Positions 30,915-46,562 are shown, counted from the first letter of the stretch. The stretch: 52,486 bases of DNA from Methanobacteriota archaeon (GCA_043820925.1 JBDRDL010000057.1:1-52486); one strand, 5' to 3'. Translations and numbers: made by a program. The notes: generated by a model from the sequence alone, not told the origin.

Positions 30915-30966
30915 ATTCCAAATTTGTTTGGAAATCAAAAGAAGAACTCTTCCAAAAAATTTGGAA
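30915..30966 (+). promoter_or_regulatory. two copies of the palindrome TTCCAAA-N3/4-TTTGGAA(AT) in the nrdD leader
   Basis: The copies lie at 30915-30935 and 30950-30966, about 35 nt apart centre to centre. They sit between a TATA-like TTTATATAT (30877-30885) and the GGAGGG Shine-Dalgarno/ATG at 30981. Confidence 0.5.
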
Positions 30967-30980
30967 ATAGGAGGGTAAAA

Positions 30981-33194
30981 ATGACCGAAGAAAATCTTGA
31001 ACGTCGAAGCACGCTTTCCAAGATTCGAAAGAGAGACGGCAGGATAGCCGAGTTCGACCAGAAGAAAATTACGAATGCAATATACAGGGCATTGCTTGCA
31101 ACGCAGGATGTGGAGCACCAGAAATCGCAGGCTACCTTAACTGGTGTGCCCTACCCAAAAGAGGTTTCGCTCAGCAAACTCGCAAAAGAATTGTCTGGCA
31201 AGGTTGTAGCTGTACTGGAGTACCAGTTCGACAGCAAGAGCGTTCCGACTGTTGAAGAAGTTCAGGATGTCGTTGAAAGAGTTCTAATAAAGAACGATTT
31301 GGCTGAAACCGCAAAAGCTTACATCCTTTACAGACACCAGCGCAAGAAAATCAGAGAAATAAAATCCACTTTCGTTGATGTTCAAAATACAATGAGCGAG
31401 TACTTGAACCAGACTGACTGGAGAGTCAGAGAAAACAGCAACGAGGATTACTCCTTCTCAGGATTGATGCTGCACGTCTCTGGAAAAGTCATTGCAAATT
31501 ATGTGCTGAACGAGATTTACACGCCTGCTATCGCAGAGGCTCACAAAAAAGGATACATACATCTACATGATTTGGGGCACGGCGTCGTGGGCTACTGCGC
31601 AGGCTGGTCTCTGAAAAACTTGCTTGTTAGAGGCTTCGGGAACGTTCCAAATAAAGTGGATACAAAGCCTGCGAAGCATCTCGACGTGGTAATCTCGCAG
31701 ATGGTGAACTACATGGGCTGCTTGCAAATGGAGTTTGCAGGTGCGCAGGCTTTCTCTTCAGTAGATACCCTGCTTGCACCCTTCGTAAAGGCTGACAGTC
31801 TAACTTACAGGCAGGTGAAGCAGAACTTACAGCGCCTGGTCTTTTCTCTGAACATTCCTTCGAGGTGGGGCTGCCAGATGCCCTTCACAAATTTAACTTT
31901 CGACTGGACAGTGCCCGAGGACATGAAGAACGAGAGAGCAATCGTAGGCGGCATGGAGCAAAATTTTACTTACGGCGACTGCCAGGCTGAGATGGACATG
32001 ATAAACAAGGCATTCCTGGAAATTATGAGAGACGGCGATGCAAATGGCAGGATATTTACCTTTCCGATACCCACTTACAATCTGACCAAGGATTTCGACT
32101 GGGACAGCGAAAATGCAAACCTGCTTTTCGAAGTTACCGCAAAGTACGGCACGCCCTACTTCCAGAACTACATAGGAAGCGAGTTAGACCCGAAGAGCAT
32201 CAGGGCGATGTGCTGCAGGTTAAACTTAAATCTGAACGAGCTCGTAAGGAGACCAGGTCACGTTTTTGCAGCAGGAGACAGCACGGGCAGCATAGGCGTG
32301 GTAACCATCAACATGAACAGGCTCGGCTATGAATCCAAAACGAAAGAAGAGTTCTTCGAAAGATTACAGCGCTACATGATTCTGGCAGAGGATTCTCTTG
32401 AGATAAAAAGGAAGGTCATAGAGAAGAACCTGCAGAACGGCTTAATGCCCTACACGAAGTCTTACCTGGGAACTTTCAGAAATCACTTCTCCACGATTGG
32501 TCTCTGCGGAATGAACGAGGCATGCCTGAATTTCTTGGGAAAGAGTATTGCAGCGCAGGAAGGAAAAGCATTTGTAATTGAAACGCTGCTTTTCATGAGA
32601 GACCTCATAAGAGAATTCCAGAGAGAAACTGGCAACCTGTACAATCTAGAAGCAACGCCCGCAGAATCTACTGCGTACAGATTCGGAAAGTTAGACAAGG
32701 AACTCTACCCTGATATAATAACTGCGGGCGGGGATACCCCCTACCTGACAAACTCGACACACCTGCCCGTCAATTATACTGACGATGCAATAGAAGCAAT
32801 AGAACACCAGAACGATGTACAGCCCCTTTATACCGGAGGAACAATCTTCCATACCTTCATGGGTGAAAGAATGAGCGGCGCAGAGAGCTGTAGGACTTTG
32901 GTTAAGAGAATAGCGCACAACACCAAGATACCATACTTTACGATAACCCCTACTTTTAGCGTGTGCAGAACTCACGGCTACATAAAAGGCGAACAGCTGC
33001 GCTGCCCTGAATGCGGCTCTGAAACAGAGATTTACTCCAGAATTGTAGGATACTTCAGACCTGTGAAAAACTGGAACAGGGGCAAAAAGGAAGAGTTCAG
33101 AGAAAGGTTGGAATACGAAGAATCCAAGACTCTGAGCCACAGCCTCGAGAGGGAAATTATTGCGGAGCACAAGTTAGTGAGCGTTGCTACTTAA
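30981..33194 (+). CDS. nrdD: anaerobic ribonucleoside-triphosphate reductase (class III)
   Basis: It has an ATP-cone (KIRKRDGRIAEFDQKKI), the thiyl-Cys finger loop SIRAMCCRLNL, a C-terminal Zn ribbon (CRTHG..CPECG) and the glycyl radical motif SRIVGYFRP. The start at 30981 has a GGAGGG SD. Confidence 0.9.
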   Translation: MTEENLERRSTLSKIRKRDGRIAEFDQKKITNAIYRALLATQDVEHQKSQATLTGVPYPKEVSLSKLAKELSGKVVAVLEYQFDSKSVPTVEEVQDVVERVLIKNDLAETAKAYILYRHQRKKIREIKSTFVDVQNTMSEYLNQTDWRVRENSNEDYSFSGLMLHVSGKVIANYVLNEIYTPAIAEAHKKGYIHLHDLGHGVVGYCAGWSLKNLLVRGFGNVPNKVDTKPAKHLDVVISQMVNYMGCLQMEFAGAQAFSSVDTLLAPFVKADSLTYRQVKQNLQRLVFSLNIPSRWGCQMPFTNLTFDWTVPEDMKNERAIVGGMEQNFTYGDCQAEMDMINKAFLEIMRDGDANGRIFTFPIPTYNLTKDFDWDSENANLLFEVTAKYGTPYFQNYIGSELDPKSIRAMCCRLNLNLNELVRRPGHVFAAGDSTGSIGVVTINMNRLGYESKTKEEFFERLQRYMILAEDSLEIKRKVIEKNLQNGLMPYTKSYLGTFRNHFSTIGLCGMNEACLNFLGKSIAAQEGKAFVIETLLFMRDLIREFQRETGNLYNLEATPAESTAYRFGKLDKELYPDIITAGGDTPYLTNSTHLPVNYTDDAIEAIEHQNDVQPLYTGGTIFHTFMGERMSGAESCRTLVKRIAHNTKIPYFTITPTFSVCRTHGYIKGEQLRCPECGSETEIYSRIVGYFRPVKNWNRGKKEEFRERLEYEESKTLSHSLEREIIAEHKLVSVAT

Positions 33195-33891
33195 TATGCT
33201 AATAAAAGGCTTAGTTAAGACTACATTAATAGACTATCCCGGAAAAGTTGCATGTACTGTTTTTCTCGCCAAGTGCAACTTCCGCTGCCCCTACTGCCAG
33301 AATCCTGATTTAGTCGTTGGCTACGGGGAGCTTCCTACGATTTCTGAAGAGGAAATCTTCGGGCATTTAAAATCCAGGAAAAAGTGGCTCGACGGAGTAT
33401 GCGTTTCTGGAGGCGAGCCGACGCTGAACAGCGACCTGCCTGAATTCTTGCGGAAGATAAAGAGCATGGGCTTTTTAATCAAGCTCGACACAAACGGAAC
33501 AAATCCAGAAATGCTGAAAAAGCTGCTGGATGAGAAACTGATAGACTATGCTGCGATGGACATTAAAGCTCCGCTGGAGAGATATGAAGAAGTAGTAAGA
33601 GTAAGAGTAGACCTGGAGAAAATCAAGCAAAGTGTGGAAATTATTCGAAACAGCGGTGTTGACTACGAATTTCGCACAACCGTTGTTCCTGGCTTGTTGA
33701 ACAGCGGGGATATTGAAAAAATTTGCAGCTGGCTGCGAGGCTCCAAGCGCTACTACCTGCAGCAGTTCAGGTCAGATATAACTCTGGACGCTTCGTTCAG
33801 AAAAGTTGCGCCGTACAAACCCGAGGAAATGCTTAAGTGCTACGAAGTAGCAAAGAATAATTTTGAGGTATGCGAGGTGAGGGGGATATGA
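33184..33891 (+). CDS. nrdG: anaerobic RNR activating radical SAM protein
   Basis: It has the CNFRCPYCQN cluster motif and GGEPTL. It overlaps the nrdD 3' end by 11 nt. Confidence 0.85.
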   Translation: MLLNMLIKGLVKTTLIDYPGKVACTVFLAKCNFRCPYCQNPDLVVGYGELPTISEEEIFGHLKSRKKWLDGVCVSGGEPTLNSDLPEFLRKIKSMGFLIKLDTNGTNPEMLKKLLDEKLIDYAAMDIKAPLERYEEVVRVRVDLEKIKQSVEIIRNSGVDYEFRTTVVPGLLNSGDIEKICSWLRGSKRYYLQQFRSDITLDASFRKVAPYKPEEMLKCYEVAKNNFEVCEVRGI

Positions 33892-33934
33892 CACAGTTGT
33901 TATATTCAATTCCGCCGCCTTGTATAGTAAAAAT

Positions 33935-34426
33935 ATGATTATCCAACTAATTTCAATTTTTATCGGTCTTGTAATCTTGGGATTCTTCTTAAATTGGCTT
34001 GACTATAGATTTATGAAAAACATATATTTAAACTCTAAGAGATTTGACCTAAATATTTGTTGTGGTAATACGGCGTGTGAGGGAATTAATGCTGACATTG
34101 TCGAAAGAGATGTCCCACGTTTTGTGTTAATTAGAAATATATACAAACTACCATTTAAGAATAAAAAATTTAAAAATACAATATGTTCTCACGCAATGGA
34201 ACATGTCGAAGATCCCGTAAAATTCTTTAGAGAACTTAAAAGAGTAAGTAAGAATGTGACTGTTTTGGTGCCTCCTCTATGGGATTTTGGTTGTATGATC
34301 AATATTTTGGAACATAGACGACAATTTTTAACATTTGCATCCAAACATAAAAATAAGTTACCAAAATTTTTTAACTTACCCTTTAGTAAAACTATTCAAG
34401 ATAGATTTGGACAGAAAATCTTATAA
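33935..34426 (+). CDS. class I SAM-dependent methyltransferase-like protein with N-terminal TM helix
   Basis: The gene is AT-rich. The translation MIIQLISIFIGLVILGFFL is followed by a Methyltransf_11-like core (DLNICCG, LPFKNKKFKNTICSHAMEHVEDP, RVSKNVTVLVP). The track ORF starts at a TTG at 33920. Confidence 0.55.
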   Translation: MIIQLISIFIGLVILGFFLNWLDYRFMKNIYLNSKRFDLNICCGNTACEGINADIVERDVPRFVLIRNIYKLPFKNKKFKNTICSHAMEHVEDPVKFFRELKRVSKNVTVLVPPLWDFGCMINILEHRRQFLTFASKHKNKLPKFFNLPFSKTIQDRFGQKIL

Positions 34427-34505
34427 AATAATTAATTCATCAACAATAAGCTAAGAGGACCAATAGCCCAAAAATAATTATACTTTATTAACCGAGTAAA
34501 TAAGT

Positions 34506-36590
34506 ATGGGAATTTCTCAGATACGCAAAAGGGACGGGCGCATCGTCGCTTTTGAACCGCAGAAGATTGCAGATGCAATTCACAAAGCGATTGCTGCGGT
34601 CGGCGAGAGCGACGGCGAGGTTGCAGAGAAGCTCTCGAATGAAGTGGTTGGAATACTTGAGAAGAAATTCCCAAAAGCAATGCTGGGCGTCGAGGACGTG
34701 CAGGACATCGTCGAGGAAGTTCTGATTAAAAACGGATATGCAAAGGTCGTAAAGGCTTACATTCTCTACCGCCAGAGGCGCACAGAGCTCAGAGAAGCAA
34801 AAAAATTCCTCGGCGTAACCGATGAGCTGAAGCTGGGAGTAAATGCGGCAAGGGTGCTGGAGAGGAGATACCTGCTGAAAAACGAGAGAGGAGAAATCAT
34901 CGAAACGCCTGCACAGATGTTCAGGAGAGTTGCGCTTGCTGTCGCAAATGTGGATTTGCTCTACAATAAAAAAGCGAAGACAGAAGAAGAATTTTACAGC
35001 ATAATGGCGAATCTTGAATTTCTTCCAAATTCTCCGACGCTCATGAATGCAGGAACAGAACTGGGGCAGCTCGCTGCATGCTTCGTCCTGCCGGTCGAAG
35101 ATTCTGTGAAGAGTATATTTGAAGCGCTTAAGTCAATGGCGCTTATACATCAAAGCGGTGGTGGAACCGGCTTTTCCTTCTCAAAGCTTAGACCAAGAGG
35201 CGATATCGTCAAGTCAACGAAAGGCGTTGCTTCTGGACCTGTATCCTTTATGCGAATTTTTGATGTTGCAACCGAGGTGATAAAGCAGGGGGGCAGGAGG
35301 AGGGGAGCTAACATGGGCATCCTTCGGGTTGATCACCCGGATATAACTGAGTTCATAACAGCGAAAGAAAAGGAAGGCTTTCTTGCGAACTTTAACGTCT
35401 CTGTTGGCATTACCGATGAGTTCATGAGAGCCGTGGGGAAAAATGAGGACTGGGATTTGATAAACCCGAGGACAGGAAAAGCTGAAAAGAGATTTAGGGC
35501 GAAAGATATCTTCGACTTAATCGTTACAATGGCATGGCGCACCGGTGACCCCGGGTTAATATTCCTCGACGAGATAAACCGCCACAATCCAACGCCGCAG
35601 GCTGGAAAAATAGAGAGCACTAATCCCTGCGGTGAAATTCCTCTCCTGCCCTATGAGTCCTGCAACCTGGGCAGCATAAACCTCTCGAAGATGGTGAAGA
35701 ATGGTGAGATGGACTGGGGGAAACTGAAAAAAGTTGCAAGAACTGCAGTGCACTTCTTAGACAACGTTATCGACGCCAATAAATATCCACTGCCCGAGAT
35801 AGAGAAAGCAGCAAAGGCGAACAGAAAAATAGGTCTCGGCGTAATGGGCTTTGCGGACATGCTCCTGAAGCTGAAAATACCCTATGACTCAGACAAAGCT
35901 CTCGCAATTGCAGAGAAAGTTATGAAATTCATAAGCGAAGAGGCTAAGAAAAAATCAATAGAGATTGCTCAAGCGCGCGGCTCCTTTCCGAATTTTGAAA
36001 GCAGTACCTTGAGAAAAAAATTCAGCGACATGAGAAATGCAACCGTTACGAGCATTGCACCCACGGGTACGATAAGCATAATCGCAGGCGCAAGCAGCGG
36101 TATAGAGCCTATTTTCGCTATCTCATTTATGCGCAACGTGATGGGAACGCAGCTGCTGGAAGTTAATCCGATTTTCGAAGCCATTGCGAAAGAAAGAGGA
36201 TTTTACAGCACGGATTTAATGATAGAAATCGCAAAGATGGGTTCGATTCAAAACATGAAAGGAATTCCGGAAGATGTTCGAAGGGTGTTTGTCACTGCTC
36301 TGGACATAGCTCCAGAATGGCACGTTAAAATGCAGGCAGCCTTTCAGAAACACGTGGACAATGCGGTTGCAAAGACTGTTAACCTGCCTCACAGCGCTAC
36401 CATGGAAGATGTGAGAAAAATATTCCTGCTGGCTTATAAGCTGAGATGCAAGGGCACGACGATATATCGCTACGGAAGCAAGAGCGAGCAGGTGCTTTAC
36501 GTGGGCGGACTGACGAAAGGCGATAAAGGAGGAGTAATTGCAAACTCGGAATATGCAGGTGGATGCCCGAGCGGCGTGTGCGAGTTGTGA
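34506..36590 (+). CDS. nrdJ: adenosylcobalamin-dependent ribonucleotide reductase (class II)
   Basis: It has an ATP-cone (QIRKRDGRIVAFEPQKI), SGGGTGFSFS, the catalytic NPCGEIPL and a C-terminal Cys pair (GGCPSGVC). Confidence 0.9.
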   Translation: MGISQIRKRDGRIVAFEPQKIADAIHKAIAAVGESDGEVAEKLSNEVVGILEKKFPKAMLGVEDVQDIVEEVLIKNGYAKVVKAYILYRQRRTELREAKKFLGVTDELKLGVNAARVLERRYLLKNERGEIIETPAQMFRRVALAVANVDLLYNKKAKTEEEFYSIMANLEFLPNSPTLMNAGTELGQLAACFVLPVEDSVKSIFEALKSMALIHQSGGGTGFSFSKLRPRGDIVKSTKGVASGPVSFMRIFDVATEVIKQGGRRRGANMGILRVDHPDITEFITAKEKEGFLANFNVSVGITDEFMRAVGKNEDWDLINPRTGKAEKRFRAKDIFDLIVTMAWRTGDPGLIFLDEINRHNPTPQAGKIESTNPCGEIPLLPYESCNLGSINLSKMVKNGEMDWGKLKKVARTAVHFLDNVIDANKYPLPEIEKAAKANRKIGLGVMGFADMLLKLKIPYDSDKALAIAEKVMKFISEEAKKKSIEIAQARGSFPNFESSTLRKKFSDMRNATVTSIAPTGTISIIAGASSGIEPIFAISFMRNVMGTQLLEVNPIFEAIAKERGFYSTDLMIEIAKMGSIQNMKGIPEDVRRVFVTALDIAPEWHVKMQAAFQKHVDNAVAKTVNLPHSATMEDVRKIFLLAYKLRCKGTTIYRYGSKSEQVLYVGGLTKGDKGGVIANSEYAGGCPSGVCEL

Positions 36591-36594
36591 TTTT

Positions 36595-37122
36595 ATGAGC
36601 GAGAAGCGGGGCAATATTCATCTCTACACCGGCGAGGGCGAGGGGAAAACTATTACTGCTTTTGGTCTTGCACTGCGTGCTCTGGGTCATGGGCATAAAG
36701 TCGTTATAATTCAATTCATGAAGGGTCGCAAGGATATTGGTGAGTACAGGGTAAAGAAGAGGCTTTCTCCAGAATACGAGATTCACCAGTTCGGCAGGAA
36801 AGAATTCATAGATTTAAAAAATCCTGAGCCGGTGGATTTTGAATTGGCGAGGAAAGGTCTGGAATTTGCGAAAAAAGCTCTCAAGAAAAAAACAGACCTT
36901 TTAATTCTGGACGAGATAAACCTCGCAGTCGCTTTCAAATTAATAAAACTTGAAGAAGTTTTGAAATTCTTGAATAATGTTCCAAAAAATACTACTGTCG
37001 TTCTAACAGGGCGCAGAGCTCCCAGAGAGCTGATAGAACGCGCGGATTTGGTTACTGAAATGAAAGAAATAAAACATCCTATGAAGAAGGGGGTGCCTGC
37101 GAGGAAGGGAATAGAATATTAA
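36595..37122 (+). CDS. cobO: cob(I)yrinic acid a,c-diamide / cob(I)alamin adenosyltransferase (CobA/CobO/BtuR family)
   Basis: From the ATG at 36595 the translation is IHLYTGEGEGKTITAFGLALRALGHGHKVVIIQFMKG..LDEIN. It starts 5 nt after the nrdJ stop. Confidence 0.85.
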   Translation: MSEKRGNIHLYTGEGEGKTITAFGLALRALGHGHKVVIIQFMKGRKDIGEYRVKKRLSPEYEIHQFGRKEFIDLKNPEPVDFELARKGLEFAKKALKKKTDLLILDEINLAVAFKLIKLEEVLKFLNNVPKNTTVVLTGRRAPRELIERADLVTEMKEIKHPMKKGVPARKGIEY

Positions 37123-37177
37123 AATTATGGTTAAGTACCCTAACTATTACAATGAAATCTAACTTGTGATTTAGAAC

Positions 37178-37255
37178 TTGGTTAGTTATTTTTATATTTT
37201 TTAATATTTAAGTTAACAAATTCTTTCCGAAAGATTTTTAAATACTTAAATATAA
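37178..37255 (+). promoter_or_regulatory. promoter module of the nrdD-like gene resembling the nrdD/lrp intergenic module (30819-30885)
   Basis: TTGGTT-AGTTATTTTTATATTTTTT..AGTTAACAAATTCTTTCCGAAAGA aligns with TTGGTTTAGTATCTTATATATTTTT..GGTTAATAAAATCTTTTAGAAAAC. Two blocks give 14/18 and 17/24 matches by eye with similar spacing. It includes the palindrome TCTTTCCGAAAGA. Confidence 0.35.
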
Positions 37256-37310
37256 TAGGATGTTAATAAATTATCTAAAATATGTTAGAAAATTGAAAAG
37301 GCTGGAGAAT

Positions 37311-39281
37311 ATGGCTGCATCAAAATCCGGGGTGAGAGTGGTAAAATCTTCGGGAGATATAGAAACCTTCGAGCCTAACGTAATAAGTAGGGACTGCGTT
37401 GAGGCAGGAATCGACTTCTACACGAGTGCCGAGGTTGCGAGCGAGGTAGCTAAGCGGATATACGACAGGATAAGCACCAGAGACATTCAGGCAATGATGC
37501 TGGAAATTCTTTACAAAAAGCATCCAGAGGCAGCTGAGCGCTACAAGCGATTCCACAGCGTTCAGGTCAGGACCTCAAGGAATACGATAGAAAATTTCGA
37601 CAGAAAGAAGATAACTGCCTCTCTGGTGAGAGAAACCAGACTGCCCAAAGAGCTTGCGGAAACAATTGCAAGAGAGAGCGAGGCTGAGCTCCGAACGTTA
37701 AAGCTCGACTTCGTTTCTGCGCCGCTGATAAGAGAGGTTGTTAACGTAAAACTTCTGGAGCACGGGTTTGAAGACGCCAGGGCAGACTACACAAGGCTCG
37801 GGATGCCTGTATATGATGCCACTCAAATAATAGAGGTTGGCTCGAAAGAAAATGCTGTGCTGCAAAATCCTGAAAGCCTGCATGCATTAATGGCAGGCAA
37901 TATATTCAAGGAATATGCGCTGCTGAAGATTCTGCCCCTGCACCTTGCGGATGCGCACATGCGGGGCGAAATACACATCCATGACTTGGATTATTTCGCA
38001 ACCAGACCCTGCTCTGCGAGGCACGACCTGAGATGGGTGCTGAGGAATGGTCTGAAAATAGGAACGGTTAAAGCTGCTCCTGCGAAAAGCCTAGAAATGG
38101 CTGTGCTGCAAGCTGCGAAGTTTCTTGAGGTTGCAAGTACGAATTTCTCAAGAGAACAAAGTTTTGATTTTTTCAACGTATATCTTGCTCCGTATATGCA
38201 AGTTGAGTATGGGCGCATAAAACAAATTGCGCAGATTTACATACACGAAAGTCAAAGCGTGCTGAGAAGGAATCAAAAAATCTTTCTGGAGTACGGCTGC
38301 CCAAAAAGTTTGAGCGAGACTGCGGCTGTGCTGCCGGGTGGAGAGGTTAAGAAGAGCGTTACCTACTCGAACTTCGAGGAGGAGGCGAGAAATTTTGCAA
38401 AGGCTCTGGCAGAAATTTATCTGGAGGGAGACCACACAGGAAAACCTTTCTACAATCCAAGGGCATATTATATCCTGAGAAAGGAAAATAAAGAAGGCTA
38501 TGAGGAATTTCTGCTTCTGGTGCATAAAATCGCTGCAAAGTTTAGTACCGCTTATTTTTTAAATCTGCATTCATATGCTGAATCAAACGAAAAGGGCAGC
38601 CTGCAGATTGTAACCCTAAACCTGCCGAGAATAGCGTACGAAGCAGGGGGCGATGATACTAAGTTCTATGAAAAGCTGGACGAGCGCCTTAACATGGCTA
38701 GGGAAGCAATAATGATTAAGAGAGATGTAATAAAGCACAGGATGGAGCAGGGCTTGCTTCCGTTTTTGACGCAGGAATCTGAAGGCGAGGAGTACTATCG
38801 CTTGGACGAGACCTCGCATTCAATAGCATACATAGGCGCCGGTGAGATGGTTAAGGCACATACCGGCGAGGAAATGCATGAAAGCGAGGATGCGCTTAAA
38901 TTTGGATTGAGGGTTATTAAGTACATTTATGAGACCACGCAGAAGTGGTCCCGGGATTCAGGACTGAACTGGGTTGTTACCCAAGCTCAAAGCGAATCCG
39001 CTGCTTCCAGGTTAGCTAAGTCAGATTACGGAAAATTCAGCGGAAATGTGGTTTTGCGCAGAGTTGGGAAGGACCTGCGCTACGAATTCTCGCATATCAA
39101 AAGCGATGCAGACGTTGCGATGCAGAGGAGGCTACAGCTCGAGGGAGCGTTCCATGCTTTCACTAGCAACGCTGTTGCGAATATAGCTGTAAAAGATCCC
39201 ACGCCAGAAACTCTGCTTGACCTGAGCATGCAAATTGTTAATACTCCAATCAGAGCCTGGACCTACAAAGAGGTTAAATAA
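37311..39281 (+). CDS. NrdD-like protein with two N-terminal ATP-cones, lacking the catalytic Cys loop and glycyl-radical domain (probable pseudoenzyme)
   Basis: It is clearly homologous to the nrdD in this window (ADAHMRGEIHIHDLDY.. versus AEAHKKGYIHLHDLGH..; LQIVTLNLPRIAY versus IGVVTINMNRLGY). About 25 aa including AMCCRL are absent, and the protein ends at ..TPIRAWTYKEVK, where nrdD continues into the Zn ribbon and RIVGY. I start it at the ATG at 37311 (GGAG SD). Confidence 0.75.
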   Translation: MAASKSGVRVVKSSGDIETFEPNVISRDCVEAGIDFYTSAEVASEVAKRIYDRISTRDIQAMMLEILYKKHPEAAERYKRFHSVQVRTSRNTIENFDRKKITASLVRETRLPKELAETIARESEAELRTLKLDFVSAPLIREVVNVKLLEHGFEDARADYTRLGMPVYDATQIIEVGSKENAVLQNPESLHALMAGNIFKEYALLKILPLHLADAHMRGEIHIHDLDYFATRPCSARHDLRWVLRNGLKIGTVKAAPAKSLEMAVLQAAKFLEVASTNFSREQSFDFFNVYLAPYMQVEYGRIKQIAQIYIHESQSVLRRNQKIFLEYGCPKSLSETAAVLPGGEVKKSVTYSNFEEEARNFAKALAEIYLEGDHTGKPFYNPRAYYILRKENKEGYEEFLLLVHKIAAKFSTAYFLNLHSYAESNEKGSLQIVTLNLPRIAYEAGGDDTKFYEKLDERLNMAREAIMIKRDVIKHRMEQGLLPFLTQESEGEEYYRLDETSHSIAYIGAGEMVKAHTGEEMHESEDALKFGLRVIKYIYETTQKWSRDSGLNWVVTQAQSESAASRLAKSDYGKFSGNVVLRRVGKDLRYEFSHIKSDADVAMQRRLQLEGAFHAFTSNAVANIAVKDPTPETLLDLSMQIVNTPIRAWTYKEVK

Positions 39282-39646: not shown

Positions 39647-39730
39647 GGGAGAATTTCCACCTGCCCATTTCCACCTCCAACTCGGCTCTTTCTTTCCCCT
39701 AACCCTCCTCTTTTTTTGAGCTTTGCTCAC

Positions 39731-39932
39731 AAACAGAAGAATTCGGCGAGATATCTGAAACGGAGGTTTTCGAATCGGTACAAAGTGGAGAAGTGATAGA
39801 AGCAAGGTCTGCAACAACTGCGGCGAGCGGTACTACGATGCAGTTACTTGAGGATATAAAAGAAAAACTCATGAAAAAGAAGTTAAGTTTAGAAGTTGTT
39901 GGTAGAGTCGTGAGAATTTCCAAGGCTATCTA
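39731..39932 (+). pseudogene. fused, frameshifted remnant of a DUF4258 toxin / YgiT-type zinc-finger antitoxin pair
   Basis: 39731-39805 aligns to 43085-43160 (EEFGEISE.EVF.SVQSGEVIE). 39806-39932 aligns to the 3' half of 43324-43560 (CN.CGERYYD..MQLLE..KKL.LEVVG.V) with internal deletions. Confidence 0.6.
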
Positions 39933-40010
39933 GTACAACCTCATGCTCTCCCTGAGTCTCGTCAGGCTCTCGTTTTCCTCCGGTTTTCTGACAACAAAAT
40001 AGATATAACT
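39930..40010 (-). pseudogene. methyltransferase 3'-end remnant, copy 1
   Basis: It translates to ..YIYFVVRKPEENESLTRLRESMRLY*, homologous to the tails at 42068-42123, 42829-42960 and 43566-43703. No methyltransferase body is attached. Confidence 0.5.
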
Positions 40011-40030
40011 GGTTACTAACATACTAACCC

Positions 40031-40483
40031 ATGACCAAGGTGTACTTGGATACTTGTGTGTGGGGCAGACCGTTCGATGACCAGAACGACAAAAAGATAC
40101 TCGAAGAAACAGCGGCATATTTTGAAATCGCGTGGAAAATAGATTCTAGAGAAATAGAAGTCGTTAGCTCAGAAGTTCTTTTTGCAGAGTTGGAAGATAT
40201 TTCTGATGAAAATCTGAGAGAAAAGGTTAAACTGCTCGTAACAAAGGCAGTTTCCTATGTAGTGAAACTTGACAACGAAATCAGAGAAGTTGCCATAGAG
40301 CTTGAGAAAAAATGCAAATGCTTTGGTACCGATGCCCTACACATCGCTGCCGCAATCTCTGGGCGCGCTGATTTTTTTGTGACCACTGACTATGAGCTGC
40401 TCAAAAAAAGAGAATGCATAAAACAAAAATTCAATATCGATGTTATAAATCCTGTTAACTTTGTGAGGAACTTGTATGGGTGA
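40031..40483 (+). CDS. PIN-domain protein (VapC-like toxin)
   Basis: 150 aa with VYLDTCVW, FAELEDIS, DALHIAAA and FVTTDYEL, the PIN acidic residue contexts. Confidence 0.7.
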   Translation: MTKVYLDTCVWGRPFDDQNDKKILEETAAYFEIAWKIDSREIEVVSSEVLFAELEDISDENLREKVKLLVTKAVSYVVKLDNEIREVAIELEKKCKCFGTDALHIAAAISGRADFFVTTDYELLKKRECIKQKFNIDVINPVNFVRNLYG

Positions 40484-40709
40484 AGCGGTTTTAAACGATA
40501 AAAAGCTTGTGAAAAAAGCTTTCGGCCTGCTTGAAAAAGAGATGAACCTTGTAGAGTATACTAGGTTTCTACAGCTCATAACTCCAAGCAGAGGGGACTT
40601 AACAAAAGAGCTTGTAGAAAAACGTAAAAAGCTAAATGTCGATGCCGCTTACGAAAAATTCCTCAAGAGGATAAAAAAAGTAGCTACCAGCTCATGTGCA
40701 ATTAAATAA
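40476..40709 (+). CDS. small helical protein, possible cognate antitoxin encoded downstream of the PIN gene
   Basis: 77 aa. It overlaps the PIN stop by 8 nt. No family recognised. Confidence 0.4.
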   Translation: MGEAVLNDKKLVKKAFGLLEKEMNLVEYTRFLQLITPSRGDLTKELVEKRKKLNVDAAYEKFLKRIKKVATSSCAIK

Positions 40710-40995: not shown

Positions 40996-41244
40996 TGTCG
41001 TTGTGAAGAAGGCTGCCCTAAAAGAGATTAAGAAAGAAACCAGGGGAACGAAAAATAGGATTTTTGATTCGCTGAAGAAACTTGAGAATCCATTCGCTAT
41101 ACCTTACGAGAAACTCAGGGGAAGGAGAACGTTTACCGTATAAGAGTTGGAGACTTCAGGGTTATTTATTATGTAGACAAGGACAAAAACGAGGTTGTGG
41201 TTTTCAGAATAAGAAGGAGAGGCAGAGCATACAAGGGGTTGTGA
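40988..41244 (+). pseudogene. RelE/ParE-family toxin gene disrupted by a frameshift
   Basis: Frame A reads (M)FSVVVKKAALKEIKKE..LENPFAIPYEKLRGRRTFTV*. A second frame continues YRIRVGDFRVIYYVDKDKNEVVVFRIRRRGRAYKGL*, the canonical RelE C-terminus. The shift lies in the GGGGAAGGAGAA run near 41118-41130. Confidence 0.65.
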
Positions 41245-41257
41245 AACGAAGTGCGTC

Positions 41258-41476
41258 GTGTGTAAAAGCTTGGACATTGTTGAAAAAGAAGTGGAGGAAG
41301 AGATTAAAGTAAACAGCGACATCGCTCTTTATCCTGTGAAAGTCAAGGTCTGCAACAGCTGCGGCGAGCGTTACTACGACAGAATAGCTGTGCTCTCCTC
41401 TTTCGCTGGTTTTCTAATTCCAAACAATAATATAAACGTTAATGTTCATTTTTTAATTAGGTGTAAAAATGGCTAG
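41258..41476 (+). pseudogene. truncated YgiT-type zinc-finger antitoxin paralog
   Basis: I estimate about 88% nt identity to 43330-43465. The ATG is replaced by ACG (the first Cys of the CxxC is lost if the GTG at 41258 is used). The sequence diverges after ..CGERYYDR into a short methylase-tail fragment (41402-41428). Confidence 0.6.
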
Positions 41477-42828: not shown

Positions 42829-42960
42829 TCAAAATTTCATACGCTCCCTAAATTTTGCTACATTTTCCTCTCTGCCCGGCTTTCTGAAGACATACAAATG
42901 CTCGTGGGCGATGAGATAAAAGTCGTACTTGCTGCCTCGCCACTTCTCCTTCGTTGAACC
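42829..42960 (-). pseudogene. methyltransferase 3'-end remnant, copy 3
   Basis: It translates to ..KEKWRGSKYDFYLIAHEHLYVFRKPGREENVAKFRERMKF*. The HE[HY]-hydrophobic-VF-[RK]K block near the C-terminus is typical of small DNA/RNA methyltransferases. No catalytic domain lies upstream. Confidence 0.55.
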
Positions 42961-43009
42961 GATTTTTGCCAGAATAAACTTTATTTGCACCAAAATAGCA
43001 TTTTCTCTT

Positions 43010-43327
43010 GTGTTAGAAAAAATCAAAAAGTGTTTCGTAGAAGACAGAGCGCTGTACACGAAACACGCCAAGATAGAAATGGAAACAGAAGAATTCGGCG
43101 AGATATCCGAAAAGGAGGTTTTCCAATCGGTACAAAGCGGTGAAGTAATAGAGGAATATCCAGATGCAGAGCCCTACCCATGCTGCCTGATTTACGGAAG
43201 AACCAAAAGCAACAGACCGATACACTCCGTCTGCGCGTACTCTGCCGAAGACGACCTTGCAATCGTGGTAACAGTTTATGAGCCAGATGTTAAAAAATGG
43301 ATTGATTACAGGAGAAAGGTAAAATGA
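43010..43327 (+). CDS. DUF4258-domain toxin-like protein
   Basis: From the GTG at 43010 the translation is LEKIKKCFVEDRALYTKHAKIEM..ISEKEV..GEVIEEYPD..PCCLIYG..RPIHSVCAY, the DUF4258 pattern. It overlaps the zinc-finger partner by 4 nt. Confidence 0.6.
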   Translation: MLEKIKKCFVEDRALYTKHAKIEMETEEFGEISEKEVFQSVQSGEVIEEYPDAEPYPCCLIYGRTKSNRPIHSVCAYSAEDDLAIVVTVYEPDVKKWIDYRRKVK

Positions 43328-43560
43328 AGTGTGTCGTGTGTAAGAGTTCAGACATTGTTGAAAAAGAAGTCGAAGAAGAAATCAAATTAAATAGCGACAT
43401 CGCTCTTTATCCCGTTAAAGTCAAAGTCTGCAACAGCTGCGGCGAGCGGTACTACGACAGAAAGACGATGCAGCTGCTGGAAGGTGTCAAAAATAAACTA
43501 AAACAGAAAAAATTAAGGCTGGAAGTCGTTGGGAAGGTTCTGAGGGTTTTGGCGGCTTGA
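43324..43560 (+). CDS. YgiT-type zinc-finger (MqsA N-terminal-like) antitoxin
   Basis: 78 aa with CVVCKS..CNSCGERYYD (CxxC-x32-CxxC). It is the only intact copy of three in the window. Confidence 0.7.
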   Translation: MKCVVCKSSDIVEKEVEEEIKLNSDIALYPVKVKVCNSCGERYYDRKTMQLLEGVKNKLKQKKLRLEVVGKVLRVLAA

Positions 43561-43565
43561 GCGTT

Positions 43566-43703
43566 TTACTATTTTTGTGCTCTCGCCTTTCTCTGGTTTT
43601 CTGAAAACATATAAGTGCTCGTGTGCTATGAGATAAAAATTATAGCTCTTGCCCCTCCACATTTCACGCATGGATTTCAGAATCTCAGGAGAGATGAATT
43701 CTC
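43566..43703 (-). pseudogene. methyltransferase 3'-end remnant, copy 4
   Basis: It translates to EFISPEILKSMREMWRGKSYNFYLIAHEHLYVFRKPEKGES.., and the natural stop is lost. It lies between the zinc-finger gene and the last gene of the AT-rich operon. Confidence 0.5.
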
Positions 43704-43762
43704 TCTAACAAAATCATTCGACTGAACGTGAGACAACAACTTCTAAAGGCTGAAAAATGATT

Positions 43763-44521
43763 TTACTTTAAAGCGAGTAGTTGATTACCAAACTTTTTTT
43801 CGATATATATTCCACCTCTATCGGTTAATCTTATTACCTCGCCCCTATGAATATACCTTTCTTTTTCGGCTCTTTCGCATAATACATGGATATTGGAATA
43901 ATGAACTTGTTTTTTTAAGTAAGCAGTTGATTTTCCTTCAGGATTAACGTAGAGAATGAGCAACAATTCATCCAATGGTTTAATTTTAGGGTCAAGAACC
44001 AAAGTATCTTCGCCAATTTTCTGGACAAGCGGAATTTCTCTCTTTAGTAAATCATTAATAATTACTTCAATTTCTCTTTGGGGTTTTATATGAGTACCTA
44101 TTCTGATAAATTCTGCTATTATCCACTTTGCTGTTTTAACGATAAGGGAAGTATCAATGTAATTAGGATCTACCTCTGATTTATGAACCAACCCTCTTTT
44201 GCTCCTTATGGTTTGAGTCGCAAAAAGCAATCGAGGAATAATAAGCCTTATTGATTCGGGAAGTTGCGATTCATTTTCAATCTTCTTCATAGTTTCGTTA
44301 AGGTTAATCTTATTAGCATCAGGTATTTTGCTCCATGCTAATAAATGAAGGATCTGGATAGAAGTCTCTACAAACTTAGTGTATTCACCTCCAACGTCTT
44401 CGTAACGGCCCAACCTAAAACGTTGTAATATATTTAAAAAATGTTTTGCTAGTTCTGACGCTAACTTTTCGTTATTTATAGTCTCATTTAATAGATCTCT
44501 TAGGTCTTCTAAACTACCCAT
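43763..44521 (-). CDS. hypothetical protein P4: helical HEPN/DUF4145-like N-domain plus C-terminal winged-helix domain
   Basis: 252 aa on AT-rich sequence. It has a single R-x6-H string (RSKRGLVH) in a helical N-domain. The C-terminal segment LLLILYVNPEGKSTAYLKK..ERYIHRGEVIRLTDRGGIYIEKK looks like a wHTH. Both assignments are weak. Confidence 0.6.
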   Translation of the reverse strand: MGSLEDLRDLLNETINNEKLASELAKHFLNILQRFRLGRYEDVGGEYTKFVETSIQILHLLAWSKIPDANKINLNETMKKIENESQLPESIRLIIPRLLFATQTIRSKRGLVHKSEVDPNYIDTSLIVKTAKWIIAEFIRIGTHIKPQREIEVIINDLLKREIPLVQKIGEDTLVLDPKIKPLDELLLILYVNPEGKSTAYLKKQVHYSNIHVLCERAEKERYIHRGEVIRLTDRGGIYIEKKFGNQLLALK

Positions 44522-44569
44522 TAACTGATACCCCTTTACTTAAAACATAAGCATAAAGACATATTCATT

Positions 44570-45070
44570 CTAAGCACTGGCCAATTCTCTTATTATCTCT
44601 AACCCTTTCTTCTTACCTGGCAAAGTTATTTTATAGCAGAAGTTAGGACTTCCTGGTTCTCCTTTTGGAACAATAAAATTAGCAAATTTGGCTAAGTTCG
44701 TGCTAAGATTATTTAATGATGAGATGCCCAACTTTTCTAATTTTTTCCTAAGTATTTTGGATTCTATAATGTCTTTTCCATAGCAATAATCCAAGGCAGT
44801 AAGAATACAAATAGTCGCCCTGCATTGCTTTTCTGCTTCGTTACCTTCTATTGCAGCGATGAGGTTCAAATCTTCCTCTTCAAAATCAAAAACGTGCTTT
44901 AGTTGCTCTTCAGTAATGCCCGCATCTGCAGCAAGTTTTTTTATTCCTTGATCTAAGCTTACCTCTACTGGTTTTAATTGTCCTCCTTTTGCTAATGCTT
45001 CTAATTCTTTTATTCTATCGTCATGTTTTTTAAGAATTTTAAATATCTCATCTATTTTTTGCTCTATCAT
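44570..45070 (-). CDS. hypothetical protein P3: coiled N-terminus shared with P2, C-terminal winged-helix-like domain
   Basis: The ATG at 45070 forms an ATGA overlap with the P2 stop. The N-terminus KIDEIFKILKKHDDRIKELE parallels P2 SIDINKILENHEKRLSKIEE. The C-terminus is ILRKKLEKLGISSLNNLSTNLAKF..YKITLPGKKKG. Confidence 0.6.
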   Translation of the reverse strand: MIEQKIDEIFKILKKHDDRIKELEALAKGGQLKPVEVSLDQGIKKLAADAGITEEQLKHVFDFEEEDLNLIAAIEGNEAEKQCRATICILTALDYCYGKDIIESKILRKKLEKLGISSLNNLSTNLAKFANFIVPKGEPGSPNFCYKITLPGKKKGLEIIRELASA

Positions 45071-45399
45071 TTTCTCACCACATACTTCCAACCATTTCCT
45101 TCCTTAACCCTTGTCAATATTTTCTTTTTTTGCATAAAGTTAACACTTAATAATTTATCCGTGGATTTGGAAGGATAATGATACCCCTCTCTTGTCAATT
45201 CGTTTTGGATTTCGTTAACAGATTTGGGCGTATTAAGAAATCCATTATCTATTAAAAGTCTAATACCGCCACTCAGTCCAGTGTAGTCTGCGGGTTTTGA
45301 AACTTTCACTTTCTTAGAGAAAATAACCTCTTCAATTTTAGAAAGTCTTTTTTCATGGTTTTCTAAAATTTTATTAATGTCAATAGATTTCTCTTCCAT
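45067..45399 (-). CDS. hypothetical protein P2: paralog of P1 (C-domain) and P3 (N-segment)
   Basis: 110 aa. The C-domain GFLNTPKSVNEIQNELTREGYHYPSKS..KKKILTRVKEGNGWKYV aligns with P1 GFFDKPKSLVEIKNALEEQGYYYPITT..KKNLGRIKQDKRWLYV. Confidence 0.6.
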   Translation of the reverse strand: MEEKSIDINKILENHEKRLSKIEEVIFSKKVKVSKPADYTGLSGGIRLLIDNGFLNTPKSVNEIQNELTREGYHYPSKSTDKLLSVNFMQKKKILTRVKEGNGWKYVVRK

Positions 45400-45403
45400 T
45401 CCC

Positions 45404-45778
45404 CTACCTCTTTACATATAACCATCTTTTGTCTTGTTTTATTCTTCCTAAGTTTTTCTTCCTTAAAATATTAAGGACGACGCCTGAGAGCGTAGTAATC
45501 GGATAGTAGTACCCTTGTTCTTCTAATGCATTTTTTATTTCTACTAATGACTTTGGTTTATCAAAAAATCCTTCTTCCCTTAAAGATAATATTAAATCGG
45601 TTGCTTTAGACGTTTTCTTAGTTTCTTCTTGGGCTTTCTTTTTTATTGTGGGTTGCACTTCTTTGACTTCCTCTCTTTTTTTTATAAGTGACACGATCGA
45701 TGCAACTTCTTCTTGCGTACCCTCTATAATGATTTTAGTCCCTTCTTTAGTTTCTATATTTGCCTTTGGCGTATACAT
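45404..45778 (-). CDS. hypothetical protein P1: small N-domain, Lys/Glu-rich linker, winged-helix-like C-domain
   Basis: 124 aa and the first gene of the operon. A TATA-like element and direct repeats lie just upstream. Confidence 0.6.
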   Translation of the reverse strand: MYTPKANIETKEGTKIIIEGTQEEVASIVSLIKKREEVKEVQPTIKKKAQEETKKTSKATDLILSLREEGFFDKPKSLVEIKNALEEQGYYYPITTLSGVVLNILRKKNLGRIKQDKRWLYVKR

Positions 45779-45794
45779 TCACCTTTTAATAATG

Positions 45795-45824
45795 TGATAA
45801 TATGATAATGTAATATATAAACTT
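45795..45824 (-). promoter_or_regulatory. candidate promoter/operator of the P1-P4 operon
   Basis: On the minus strand, TTTATATATT (45815-45824) is followed by the direct repeat ATTATCA-T-ATTATCA (45795-45809), 17-31 nt upstream of the P1 ATG. Confidence 0.4.
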
Positions 45825-46052
45825 TTTGGTTATTCTTTACACCAAAACCTTTAATAGACAAGTGAATGTTTATAGGAAGCATACACCTTCAAAGGGGCCA
45901 AGATAGTAGGAAGATATACATACGCACTGACGGCAAAAAGGAAATATCCAAATCTCGGAGAAGGATTACCTAAACAAGGGCTTCAAAAGTTTCGTCTTAA
46001 CAATAATCCTTTCAATCGATAATATTTTAATAACAAAAAGTTAGAAAAGGAG

Positions 46053-46562
46053 ATGGAAATGGTAAAGAGTTTCGCACAGCGGCTTGAAGAAGCAAACAGC
46101 TTGGCAGACATTTTCGAGTTGGTCAAGGAAGGTGTTCGCAAGGTTTACAAGACCGGGAGAGCAGGGCTTAGCTTGGGCTTGGCTGAGATAGTAAGCCAGG
46201 AGAATCATCTTATCGGAGCATTCTATCCCTTCGGCTCGAATATAATTGTCATGAACAAAACGCCTCTGAAAAAGATTGGCGAAACTGATCCGAGGCTCTT
46301 CAAACCCTATGCATTTCACATCCTGCTCCATGAATATCTGCATGCATTAGGAAATATCGACGAGGAATACACCAGAAAAATAGTTTATCAGATAAGCCTT
46401 GAGCTGTTTGGAAGGCGTCATACTGCGACGAAGATGGCGAAAGACCTGAACAAATTCCTGCCAGAGTTGGCTTACTCTCCTCTAGATTTCCAGCCTGCTG
46501 AGCATCTCCAGATAGAGTTAGTCCAGGATTTCGATAAATCCAGCATTAGCTATATTCAATAA
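46053..46562 (+). CDS. putative zinc metallopeptidase-like protein (HExxH)
   Basis: 169 aa with a single HEYLH motif in a helical context. GC returns to the window average here. Confidence 0.5.
   Translation: MEMVKSFAQRLEEANSLADIFELVKEGVRKVYKTGRAGLSLGLAEIVSQENHLIGAFYPFGSNIIVMNKTPLKKIGETDPRLFKPYAFHILLHEYLHALGNIDEEYTRKIVYQISLELFGRRHTATKMAKDLNKFLPELAYSPLDFQPAEHLQIELVQDFDKSSISYIQ

Follow-up and report, generated by a model that had tools for sequence, protein, structure and literature searches.

A four-gene archaeal operon as a candidate member of a widespread, unannotated HEPN–winged-helix conflict module

The window analysed here is a stretch of 52,486 nucleotides (nt) from a Methanobacteriota archaeon (GCA_043820925.1 JBDRDL010000057.1:1-52486), in which four minus-strand genes, termed P1 to P4 in their order along the operon, occupy positions 43763 to 45778. 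The last of these genes encodes a predicted effector with an N-terminal HEPN-like domain and a C-terminal winged helix, and the gene directly upstream of it encodes a smaller protein that we consider to be its partner. An earlier reading of the sequence alone (the sequence-only reading) had singled out this operon as a candidate uncharacterised system that could not be matched to a described one. This assessment is supported, and neither a library model nor a literature description was found for it.

Organisation of the operon

The genes and associated elements, in the direction of transcription, are as follows.

45814..45821, minus strand: TATA-like box TTTATATA, with an A-rich stretch before it that resembles a B recognition element; ~40 nt upstream of the P1 ATG; putative promoter
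45787..45809, minus strand: candidate operator of three direct repeats with an 8-bp period (ATTATCA-T-ATTATCA-C-ATTATTA), between the TATA box and a Shine-Dalgarno-like GGTG
45404..45778, minus strand: P1, 124 amino acids (aa); N-terminal beta-rich segment (KAxIxTKxGxxIxIEG) and C-terminal winged-helix-like domain (~45407–45601)
45067..45399, minus strand: P2, 110 aa; P3-type N-terminal coiled segment and P1-type C-terminal winged-helix-like domain
44570..45070, minus strand: P3, 166 aa; N-terminal coiled segment, conserved middle (DAGITEEQL..VFDFEEEDLNLI) and C-terminal winged helix (~44573–44824)
43763..44521, minus strand: P4, 252 aa; predicted effector with an N-terminal HEPN-like domain and a C-terminal MarR-like winged helix
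43753..43757, minus strand: run of five T residues 6 nt past the P4 stop codon; possible archaeal oligo-T terminator

The four open reading frames (ORFs) are tightly packed as had been described, with a 4-nt gap, an ATGA overlap and a 48-nt gap between successive genes. The start of P3 was set at the ATG at 45070, and not at the TTG at 45091 where the longest ORF begins, because 13 homologues align from the ATG in the family alignment. The operon is also as AT-rich as reported; its G+C content (GC) is 0.33 (0.32–0.34 for single genes), compared with 0.441 to the left and 0.452 to the right of the genomic island described below.

Single-sequence scans of P1 to P4 against Pfam, NCBIfam, PHROGs and PADLOC returned nothing usable, and a scan of positions 43500–46150 against Rfam found no RNA family. 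Specifically, no ATPase, nuclease, methylase or integrase family scored in the four protein libraries, in agreement with the sequence-only reading, and the PADLOC-DB v2 scan gave weak winged-helix or Drt8 matches alone (E≥0.005). The Drt8 match of P4 (E 0.0065) was treated as chance and rejected, as none of 114 relatives of P4 reproduces it.

Upstream of P1, both the TATA-like box and the ATTATCA-T-ATTATCA repeat noted earlier are present, and the repeat is extended here from two copies to three. Two matches to the ATTATCA-type repeat were counted, where shuffling the whole window predicts 0.04, a background that the local AT-richness makes optimistic. Archaeal transcription is expected to start ~25 nt downstream of the TATA box, and the candidate operator would overlap this predicted start. 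The contig of a sister strain (L003; loci outside the window carry L numbers) ends inside the operon.

P1, P2 and P3 had been proposed to be built from shuffled modules, and profile comparisons bear this out. The C-terminal 60 residues of P1 and P2 are 39% identical (BLASTP E 3e-12), and hhalign aligns P2 residues 46–109 to P1 at 96%. The N-terminal coiled segment said to be shared by P2 and P3 gives a weak pairwise signal (E 0.004) and a better one when P2 residues 2–52 are compared with the N-terminus of the P3 family (hhalign 76%, E 2.3e-5). Because its C-terminus matches P1 and its N-terminus matches the P3 family, P2 is, as judged from these alignments, a chimera of a P3 N-terminus and a P1 C-terminus.

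The separate tail of P3 is indeed a winged helix. When iterated family profiles are used, it aligns with the winged helix of a partner family found upstream of P4 homologues elsewhere (termed B; hhalign 95%, E 4.5e-8) and with the C-terminal domain of P4 itself (hhalign 83%), and the winged helices of B and P4 align still better with one another (hhalign 97.5%, E 7.7e-12). For P1 and P2 the matches are weak (Penicillinase_R, E 0.0013 for the P1 homologue of L008 and 0.15 for P2), and the profiles of the P1 and P3 families gave nothing significant against PDB sequences. Since these PDB searches were null, the winged-helix assignment of P1 and P2 draws on weak matches together with the sequence pattern.

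The predicted effector P4

Three parts of P4 are used in the analysis that follows.

44087..44476, minus strand: HEPN-like helical domain, residues ~16–145; helix 1 18–36, helix 2 40–63 (containing E52), insert 64–88, helix 3 89–110, helix 4 120–142
44183..44206, minus strand: RSKRGLVH motif (R106–H113), placed by the family alignment
43772..43984, minus strand: C-terminal winged helix, residues ~180–250, from PDB profile search, Foldseek and hhalign

An exhaustive HMMER search with a two-sequence profile revealed a large family of P4 relatives, which a word-indexed search understates by finding one relative. The family comprises 894 cluster representatives (at 50% identity) with E≤1e-3 and 617 with E≤1e-10, nearly all of them ~250 aa long. 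Every member with a source name is called a ‘hypothetical protein’, none has a Pfam domain on record, and no model of Pfam, NCBIfam, PADLOC or PHROG covers the family. When 114 relatives were compared with Pfam at E≤0.01, C-terminal winged-helix families alone were matched and no HEPN family was; in PADLOC, three of them match winged-helix or NDT accessory models alone, and no system model is matched. Likewise, the N-terminal domain of P4 matched no Pfam model at E≤1, including those for HEPN, DUF86, DUF4145, HEPN_Swt1 and HEPN_Apea, and no NCBIfam model.

Structure prediction with AlphaFold2 was more informative. An input of two sequences gave a predicted local distance difference test score (pLDDT) of 56, and an alignment of 114 sequences was used instead, which raised the pLDDT to 92.1 with a predicted template modelling score of 0.80. 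In this model the four helices listed above, with a short, helical insert (64–88) between helices 2 and 3, are followed by a linker helix, a beta-hairpin and the winged helix (182–250). Helix 3 ends at residue 110, and the Rx6H motif is located at its end, with the polar residue S107 following R106.

The RSKRGLVH string to which attention had been drawn is present, and its outer residues are near-invariant. All conservation statistics were taken from the unbiased 114-sequence alignment (A2) alone, in which the motif arginine occurs in 110/114 sequences, an asparagine or serine next to it in 113/114 and the histidine in 113/114. In addition, the helix-2 glutamate E52 is found in 111/114, and the position four residues further on is arginine or lysine in 81/114 (E-x3-[R/K]). 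Near-invariance extends to G48, F50, E52, P96, R106, N/S107, R109, H113, P119, D123, W133, E137 and R140.

When the model was compared with the PDB by Foldseek, the best matches outside the winged helix were HEPN proteins: AF_0298 (2hsb), the sacsin HEPN domain (3o10), TT1696 (1ufb), 4nqf, Csm6 (5yjc), the C-domain of LinB (3jyy) and AbiV (9bj7). The probabilities of these matches were 0.66–0.96 (0.87–0.96 for the best of them), or 0.23 for AbiV, with E-values of 0.27–1.6 (0.27–1 when AbiV is left aside). The HEPN superfamily was defined in a 2013 census by four features, which include a polar residue after the motif arginine and an acidic residue in helix 2, typically within E-x3-[K/R] (PMC3710099). 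P4 has all four (helix topology, Rx6H, polar residue and helix-2 acidic residue), with the caveat that the window protein carries Q56. From the motif, the helix topology and the structural matches, which agree with the HEPN-like plus winged-helix architecture suggested earlier, we assign P4 to the HEPN superfamily, but to none of its described families. The census lists no protein of ~250 aa with an N-terminal HEPN domain, a C-terminal winged helix and a winged-helix partner (PMC3710099), and full-text searches of the literature gave no description of such a protein. HEPN domains are ribonucleases (RNases) that are generally active as dimers (PMC3710099), and P4 is likely to be a metal-independent effector of the RNase type with E52, R106, S107 and H113 as its key residues.

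The C-terminal winged helix, also recognised from the sequence, matches MepR/MarR structures both by PDB profile search (E 2.3e-4, residues 184–247) and by Foldseek (MarR probability 0.99). The winged-helix core matches, and the dimerisation helices that flank it in MarR are replaced in P4 by the HEPN-like domain. On the profile and the model, P4 is related to winged-helix proteins and is probably not a canonical MarR protein.

These observations also frame an alternative in which the operon would be purely regulatory. P1 to P4 would then be winged-helix transcription factors acting on a target regulon, and the N-terminal domain of P4 a non-catalytic sensor of a ligand or nucleotide. In favour of this, winged-helix domains occur in all four proteins, the C-terminal part of P4 matches MarR repressors, PADLOC is silent, and non-catalytic HEPN domains do exist (PMC3710099). 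However, HEPN domains of this kind have lost the Rx4-6H motif (PMC3710099), whereas the arginine, polar residue, histidine and helix-2 glutamate are retained near-invariantly in 114 diverse P4 sequences. We regard a purely regulatory role as unlikely, and the distribution of the genes, described next, bears on it as well.

The conserved gene pair and its exchangeable terminal gene

Relatives of P4 were located in GTDB species-representative genomes by a degenerate DNA pattern derived from P4 motifs, which fixes P96, R106, R109, H113, P119, D123, W133, E137 and R140. This yielded at least 120 loci, and 112 of those listed encode true family members (118–304 bits). The listed loci span >15 phyla, including Actinomycetota, Pseudomonadota, Cyanobacteriota, Acidobacteriota, Chloroflexota, Planctomycetota, Bacteroidota, Myxococcota, Verrucomicrobiota, Chlamydiota, Gemmatimonadota, Patescibacteria and others, and a few of them are archaeal. 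Cultured bacteria that carry the module include Bradyrhizobium sp. PUT101, Streptomyces sp. NBC_01171, Puia dinghuensis and Sphingopyxis sp. LC363.

When all ORFs within 3.5 kb of these genes were clustered, exactly one conserved family emerged. It is present at 96 of the 112 listed loci, on the same strand and directly upstream of the P4 homologue, with a median gap of 5 nt. This upstream cluster joins B, P3 and P1-like families, has no Pfam model, and is split by iterated profiles into B-type (78), P3-type (63), P1-type (11) and A-type (19) members among the matches listed. The arrangements among the listed loci are B–P4 (40), P3–P4 (21) and two or three partners before P4 (~20, including one P1–P3–P4). 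A search of GTDB representative genomes for the P3 family itself did not find it. An A–B–P4 trio (135, 155 and 253 aa) is encoded at L001:2012-3666 on a bacterial metagenomic contig, where its GC is 0.41–0.48 against 0.51–0.57 in the flanks and it is inserted between the housekeeping genes for AMMECR1 and MgsA.

Twenty listed loci have no detected partner; 11 of these lack upstream sequence, in 2 the partner is masked by over-extension of an ORF, and 2 have a broken P4 gene. The P4-family genes at L097:1844-2650 and L109:1585-2061 are split or truncated and stand at loci without a detectable partner, as would be expected if the effector decays after the pair has been disrupted. Furthermore, partner type tracks the phylogeny of P4: the nearest neighbour has the same type in 63 of 81 cases, where 41 would be expected and none of 2000 permutations exceeded 61. 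From these data the conserved unit is, by gene neighbourhood, a two-gene core of a partner and a HEPN–winged-helix protein, with P1 and P2 as accessory paralogues. Such a compact bicistronic unit with strict pairing, in which a small partner precedes an enzyme, resembles a type II toxin–antitoxin (TA) locus, and the exceptions are almost all truncated loci or broken genes. A small DNA-binding protein first and a nuclease second is the usual gene order of type II TA systems.

Co-occurrence of the genes in other genomes had been set beforehand as a test of the proposed system. This test did not refute the proposal: P3-type partners occur with P4 in L010, L012 and L018 and at 26 of the genome loci listed, and P1-like proteins with 20–46% identity to P1 are encoded upstream of a partner and P4 in L008 (an archaeal contig), L010 (Aenigmatarchaeota), L051 (an uncultured archaeon), L056 (an alphaproteobacterium) and L135. 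The protein at L056:1698-2081, from an alphaproteobacterial metagenome-assembled genome (MAG), is 46% identical to P1. Because this bacterial protein occupies the same operon position, the similarity indicates that the accessory P1 gene probably moved between domains along with the module.

The genes that flank the pair at the listed loci are heterogeneous, mostly housekeeping genes with a few for integrases, PIN or NYN proteins, methylases and transposases. Because of this heterogeneity the partner–P4 pair behaves as a small, independently mobile cassette. Enrichment in defence islands does not follow, since the immediate bacterial neighbours are mostly housekeeping genes.

The P3 family provides a second view of the system. 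Each of its 13 homologues (52–89% identity) directly precedes the terminal gene, save in L010, where the P3-like gene comes after P4. A gene of the P4 family follows P3 directly in the window, L012 and L018. In L004, L013, L014, L016 and L017 its place is taken by a gene for a PLD-like protein of 264–274 aa, which has an N-terminal winged helix of its own, a C-terminal PLD-like domain that matches PADLOC PDC-S05 (E 4e-11) and a weak MIT_C match. In L003 and L007 a DUF4145-like protein follows instead (with GAGGAHPP and GDTAAHNP, respectively); L003_256 scores no better than E 0.09 against DUF4145, and hhalign of these two sequences alone with the P4 N-domain gave nothing.

One of these replacements can be examined between strains at the following site.

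44589..44590, no strand assigned: recombination breakpoint relative to L003 (blastn), ~20 nt before the P3 stop codon

L003 derives from an organism very closely related to that of the window: at the DNA level the flanks are 94.7–97.0% identical and the P3 gene is 91.8% identical (blastn). Homology breaks at window position 44590 and resumes at 42952. Between these points L003 carries an 804-nt DUF4145-like gene (GC 0.34), and its counterpart in the window (44589–42953) contains P4, a methylase fragment and a pair of DUF4258/MqsA-like genes. The effector cassette has been exchanged at the strain level, next to a P3 partner that was retained. Across the P3 family, sequence comparison indicates that the last gene is an interchangeable cassette, which encodes a HEPN–winged-helix protein in the window and a DUF4145-like or PLD-like protein in relatives, and the ~15 loci involved suggest that the partner is promiscuous.

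This exchange bears on the purely regulatory alternative introduced above. The frequent location of bacterial loci among housekeeping genes would favour it, but the neighbourhood is variable, the distribution over >15 phyla is patchy, and replacement of P4 by nuclease-type cassettes, including the swap at the strain level, ill suits a housekeeping regulator.

A different possibility is restriction-like surveillance, in which the array of winged helices (P1 to P3 plus P4) would recognise foreign or modified DNA and recruit a nuclease (HEPN, PLD or DUF4145), in some lineages with a HerA/DUF87 ATPase; the partners would then be sensors and not antitoxins. Partner copy number does vary, with two or three paralogues at ~20 of 96 listed loci, and the effectors are interchangeable, including a PLD-like nuclease with an N-terminal winged helix. 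DUF87/HerA-like genes adjoin the module in L008, L010, L104 and L219, GmrSD_N is found in L219, and a Type ISP restriction–modification gene neighbours the module in L004. However, HerA genes occur in ~4 of ~130 loci and not in the window, most loci consist of just two small genes with neither ATPase nor methylase, and HEPN domains are RNases, not DNases (PMC3710099). We therefore consider surveillance of this kind improbable.

The DUF87/HerA-like ATPase genes that adjoin P4-family genes are located at L008:8801-10294, L010:3752-5308, L219:4593-6788 and L104:1171-1443, and most of these loci are of archaeal or metagenomic origin. In the L008 protein, the C-terminus forms a winged-helix-like tail. 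A core role for HerA/DUF87 was rejected, as the gene is adjacent in ~4 loci only; the loci that bear it may represent an extended variant of the system.

Genomic setting, proposed mechanism and comparison with known systems

The operon closes a variable island with bounds at ~39730 and ~46000, which has a ribonucleotide-reductase cluster on its left side; on its right side, the sequence becomes homologous to L139, a related species, from window position 46000, just past the P1 promoter. In the uncultured host archaeon, the ABCE1 protein shares 90% identity with its counterpart in a groundwater ‘Methanobacteriota’ MAG and ~70% with those of Hydrothermarchaeota. The horizontal acquisition proposed from location, composition and architecture is supported by this variable setting, by the end of L139 homology at 46000, by the different last gene of L003 and by the 46% identity of P1 to an alphaproteobacterial protein.

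Besides the operon, the island holds genes for PIN, ParE-like and DUF4258/MqsA-like proteins and methylase fragments. Three copies or fragments (88–94% identical) of a TA cassette encoding a DUF4258 protein and an MqsA-like zinc ribbon are found at 39731-39838, 41241-41384 and 43083-43462. The intact copy (42929–43560) is flanked by fragments that resemble the C-terminus of a DNA methylase, at 42829–43071 and 43513–43671 (‘…YLIAHEHLYVFRKP’). These cassette copies and flanking fragments point to repeated recombination in the island. A 960-bp insertion with a PIN-domain gene (39730-40689; gene at 40031–40483) is absent from L003, and the sequences on both sides are 95–97% identical. The adjoining cluster (30924-39281) contains three ribonucleotide-reductase genes in a row, for NrdD, a class II-type large subunit and a second NrdD-like protein; a radical-SAM activase gene and a CobA-like gene are placed between them, an arrangement that is kept in L003. 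Further away, a 342-aa ORF without a Pfam match (13048-14076, minus strand) lies in a second sharp GC trough (0.30 compared with ~0.44) and looks like another foreign orphan gene. Elsewhere, relatives of the module adjoin a Type ISP restriction–modification gene (L004), BglII, Fic and PIN genes (L007), HicAB and an integrase gene (L008) and GmrSD_N (L219).

A foreign origin could also mean that an integrated element, viral or plasmid, left the operon behind as a module for regulation or partition; such a remnant was one of the options raised by the sequence-only reading. The AT-rich DNA of foreign composition is compatible with this idea, as are the L008 module, which is located 3 kb from an integrase gene inside a probable integrated element with a DUF87 ATPase, and the three integrases among 150 flanking genes. 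Database searches give the idea no support. P1 to P4 had no match in PHROGs, tblastn against 50,697 phage records gave none, and 72,556 plasmids gave one weak match. The P4 DNA pattern had 0 matches in 2.9 million viral contigs (compared with at least 120 loci in genomes), no relative of the P3 family was found in viral contigs, and Foldseek gave no meaningful match to viral structure models. In addition, the window contains neither a tRNA gene nor an integrase gene, and no confident profile places the four genes in a known provirus module. We consider a viral or plasmid remnant very unlikely.

The architecture of P4, its pairing with an upstream partner whose winged helix is homologous to its own, the exchange of the terminal gene and the genomic context lead us to favour, as somewhat the more probable outcome, the reading that this operon was acquired horizontally and belongs to a widespread two-component conflict module that lacks annotation, moves between archaea and bacteria and would act in a TA-like or abortive-defence manner. 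P4 would be the effector, P3 the cognate partner encoded directly upstream and P1 an accessory winged-helix paralogue. According to this proposal, one or more partners would bind P4 via their homologous winged-helix domains and coiled N-termini. Binding would keep the HEPN domain from forming an active dimer, so that P3 would hold P4 inactive. The P1/P2 set may assist P3 at this locus, with P2 perhaps bridging through its P3-type coiled N-terminus, and the complex would repress its own promoter at the three ATTATCA repeats. If the partner were lost or titrated, for instance upon virus infection, stress or loss of the locus, P4 would cleave RNA and growth would be arrested.

Several observations weigh against a two-component conflict module. 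Collections of phages, plasmids and viral contigs contain virtually no trace of the module, which is unusual for addiction modules, and the bacterial P4 genes have mostly housekeeping neighbours with few integrase, PIN or NYN genes. No member of the P4 family (0/114) matches a PADLOC system model. The E-values of the Foldseek HEPN matches are individually non-significant, no sequence profile ties the P4 N-domain to Pfam HEPN families or PDB HEPN proteins, and the P4 of the window has Q56 where most of the family has arginine or lysine in E-x3-[R/K]. Finally, a protein with a solely regulatory role could also carry a winged helix like that on the ‘toxin’ itself, and the candidate operator repeat lies in AT-rich DNA.

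A broader proposal, which we put forward tentatively and would not yet bet on, is that the operon exemplifies an unrecognised and very widespread class of modular conflict systems. Winged-helix ‘adaptors’ (B/P3, accessory P1 and A) would pair interchangeably with unrelated nuclease cassettes (HEPN–winged-helix, DUF4145-like or PLD-like), sometimes with a HerA ATPase. The homologous winged helices of partner and effector would form the control interface and may also sense nucleic acid.

If these proposals are correct, ~900 clusters of ‘hypothetical proteins’ from >15 bacterial and archaeal phyla gain a predicted HEPN RNase activity and a partner. The control of HEPN toxins would also extend beyond minimal nucleotidyltransferases and AMPylation to a partner whose winged helix is homologous to the toxin’s own. 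Replacement of the terminal gene between strains, directly after a conserved partner, provides a clean natural case of effector-cassette exchange. Because the system is small (two to four genes) and also found in cultured bacteria, it is directly testable.

Several known systems share parts of this organisation. Csx1 and Csm6 combine a HEPN RNase with a helix-turn-helix or winged-helix element, and Csm6 (5yjc) is among the Foldseek matches of P4; however, P4 has neither a CARF sensor nor a CRISPR association, its domain order is reversed and it is much smaller. In AbiEi/AbiEii, a type IV TA and abortive-infection system, an upstream winged-helix protein is both the partner of a downstream toxic enzyme and an autorepressor. 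The A-type protein of L004 matches AbiEi_4 weakly (E 0.038), but the similarity is not significant and the AbiEii toxin is a nucleotidyltransferase, not a HEPN protein. PDC-S05, a PLD-like single-gene defence candidate that was proposed computationally and is not known to have been validated, matches the protein that replaces P4 in relatives, whereas the window lacks this protein and P4 is dissimilar to PDC-S05.

Hyperpromiscuous antitoxin networks (NetFlax, PanA type) are built on antitoxin domains that pair with many toxins (PMC10440598). The P3 family, which accompanies terminal genes of three kinds unrelated to one another (HEPN–winged helix, DUF4145-like and PLD-like), is similar in this respect, but the protein families differ. 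DUF4145 is listed among HEPN domains (PMC3710099). It has a similar motif (of the type basic residue-x2-G-x3-H) and is the domain type of the alternative cassette in L003 and L007, although P4 and 114 relatives give no match to PF13643. RnlA/RnlB and LsoA/LsoB are anti-phage pairs of a HEPN RNase toxin and a protein antitoxin. As proposed for P4, a HEPN ribonuclease is controlled there by a small protein partner, and its activity depends on dimerisation state (PMC8266594), but neither the sequence nor the architecture resembles that of the P4 system. RnlA is a three-domain protein of ~350 aa, and to our knowledge RnlB is not a winged-helix protein.

A further parallel in organisation is the type VII TA system HepT/MntA, which has a small HEPN effector with its partner encoded upstream (PMC7641770; PMC3710099). 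Both systems are two-gene mobile cassettes with an Rx4-6H HEPN effector directly preceded by its partner. They differ in that the partner here is a coiled-coil and winged-helix protein and not a minimal nucleotidyltransferase, P4 adds a C-terminal winged helix, and P4 has no Pfam HEPN/DUF86 match. No nucleotidyltransferase domain was found in P1 to P3 or in 77 upstream partners, and because the partner is of a different type, AMPylation cannot be the means by which P4 is neutralised. A HEPN effector with a small protein partner is of a known kind, and the P4 family, the type of partner and the exchange of cassettes are new.

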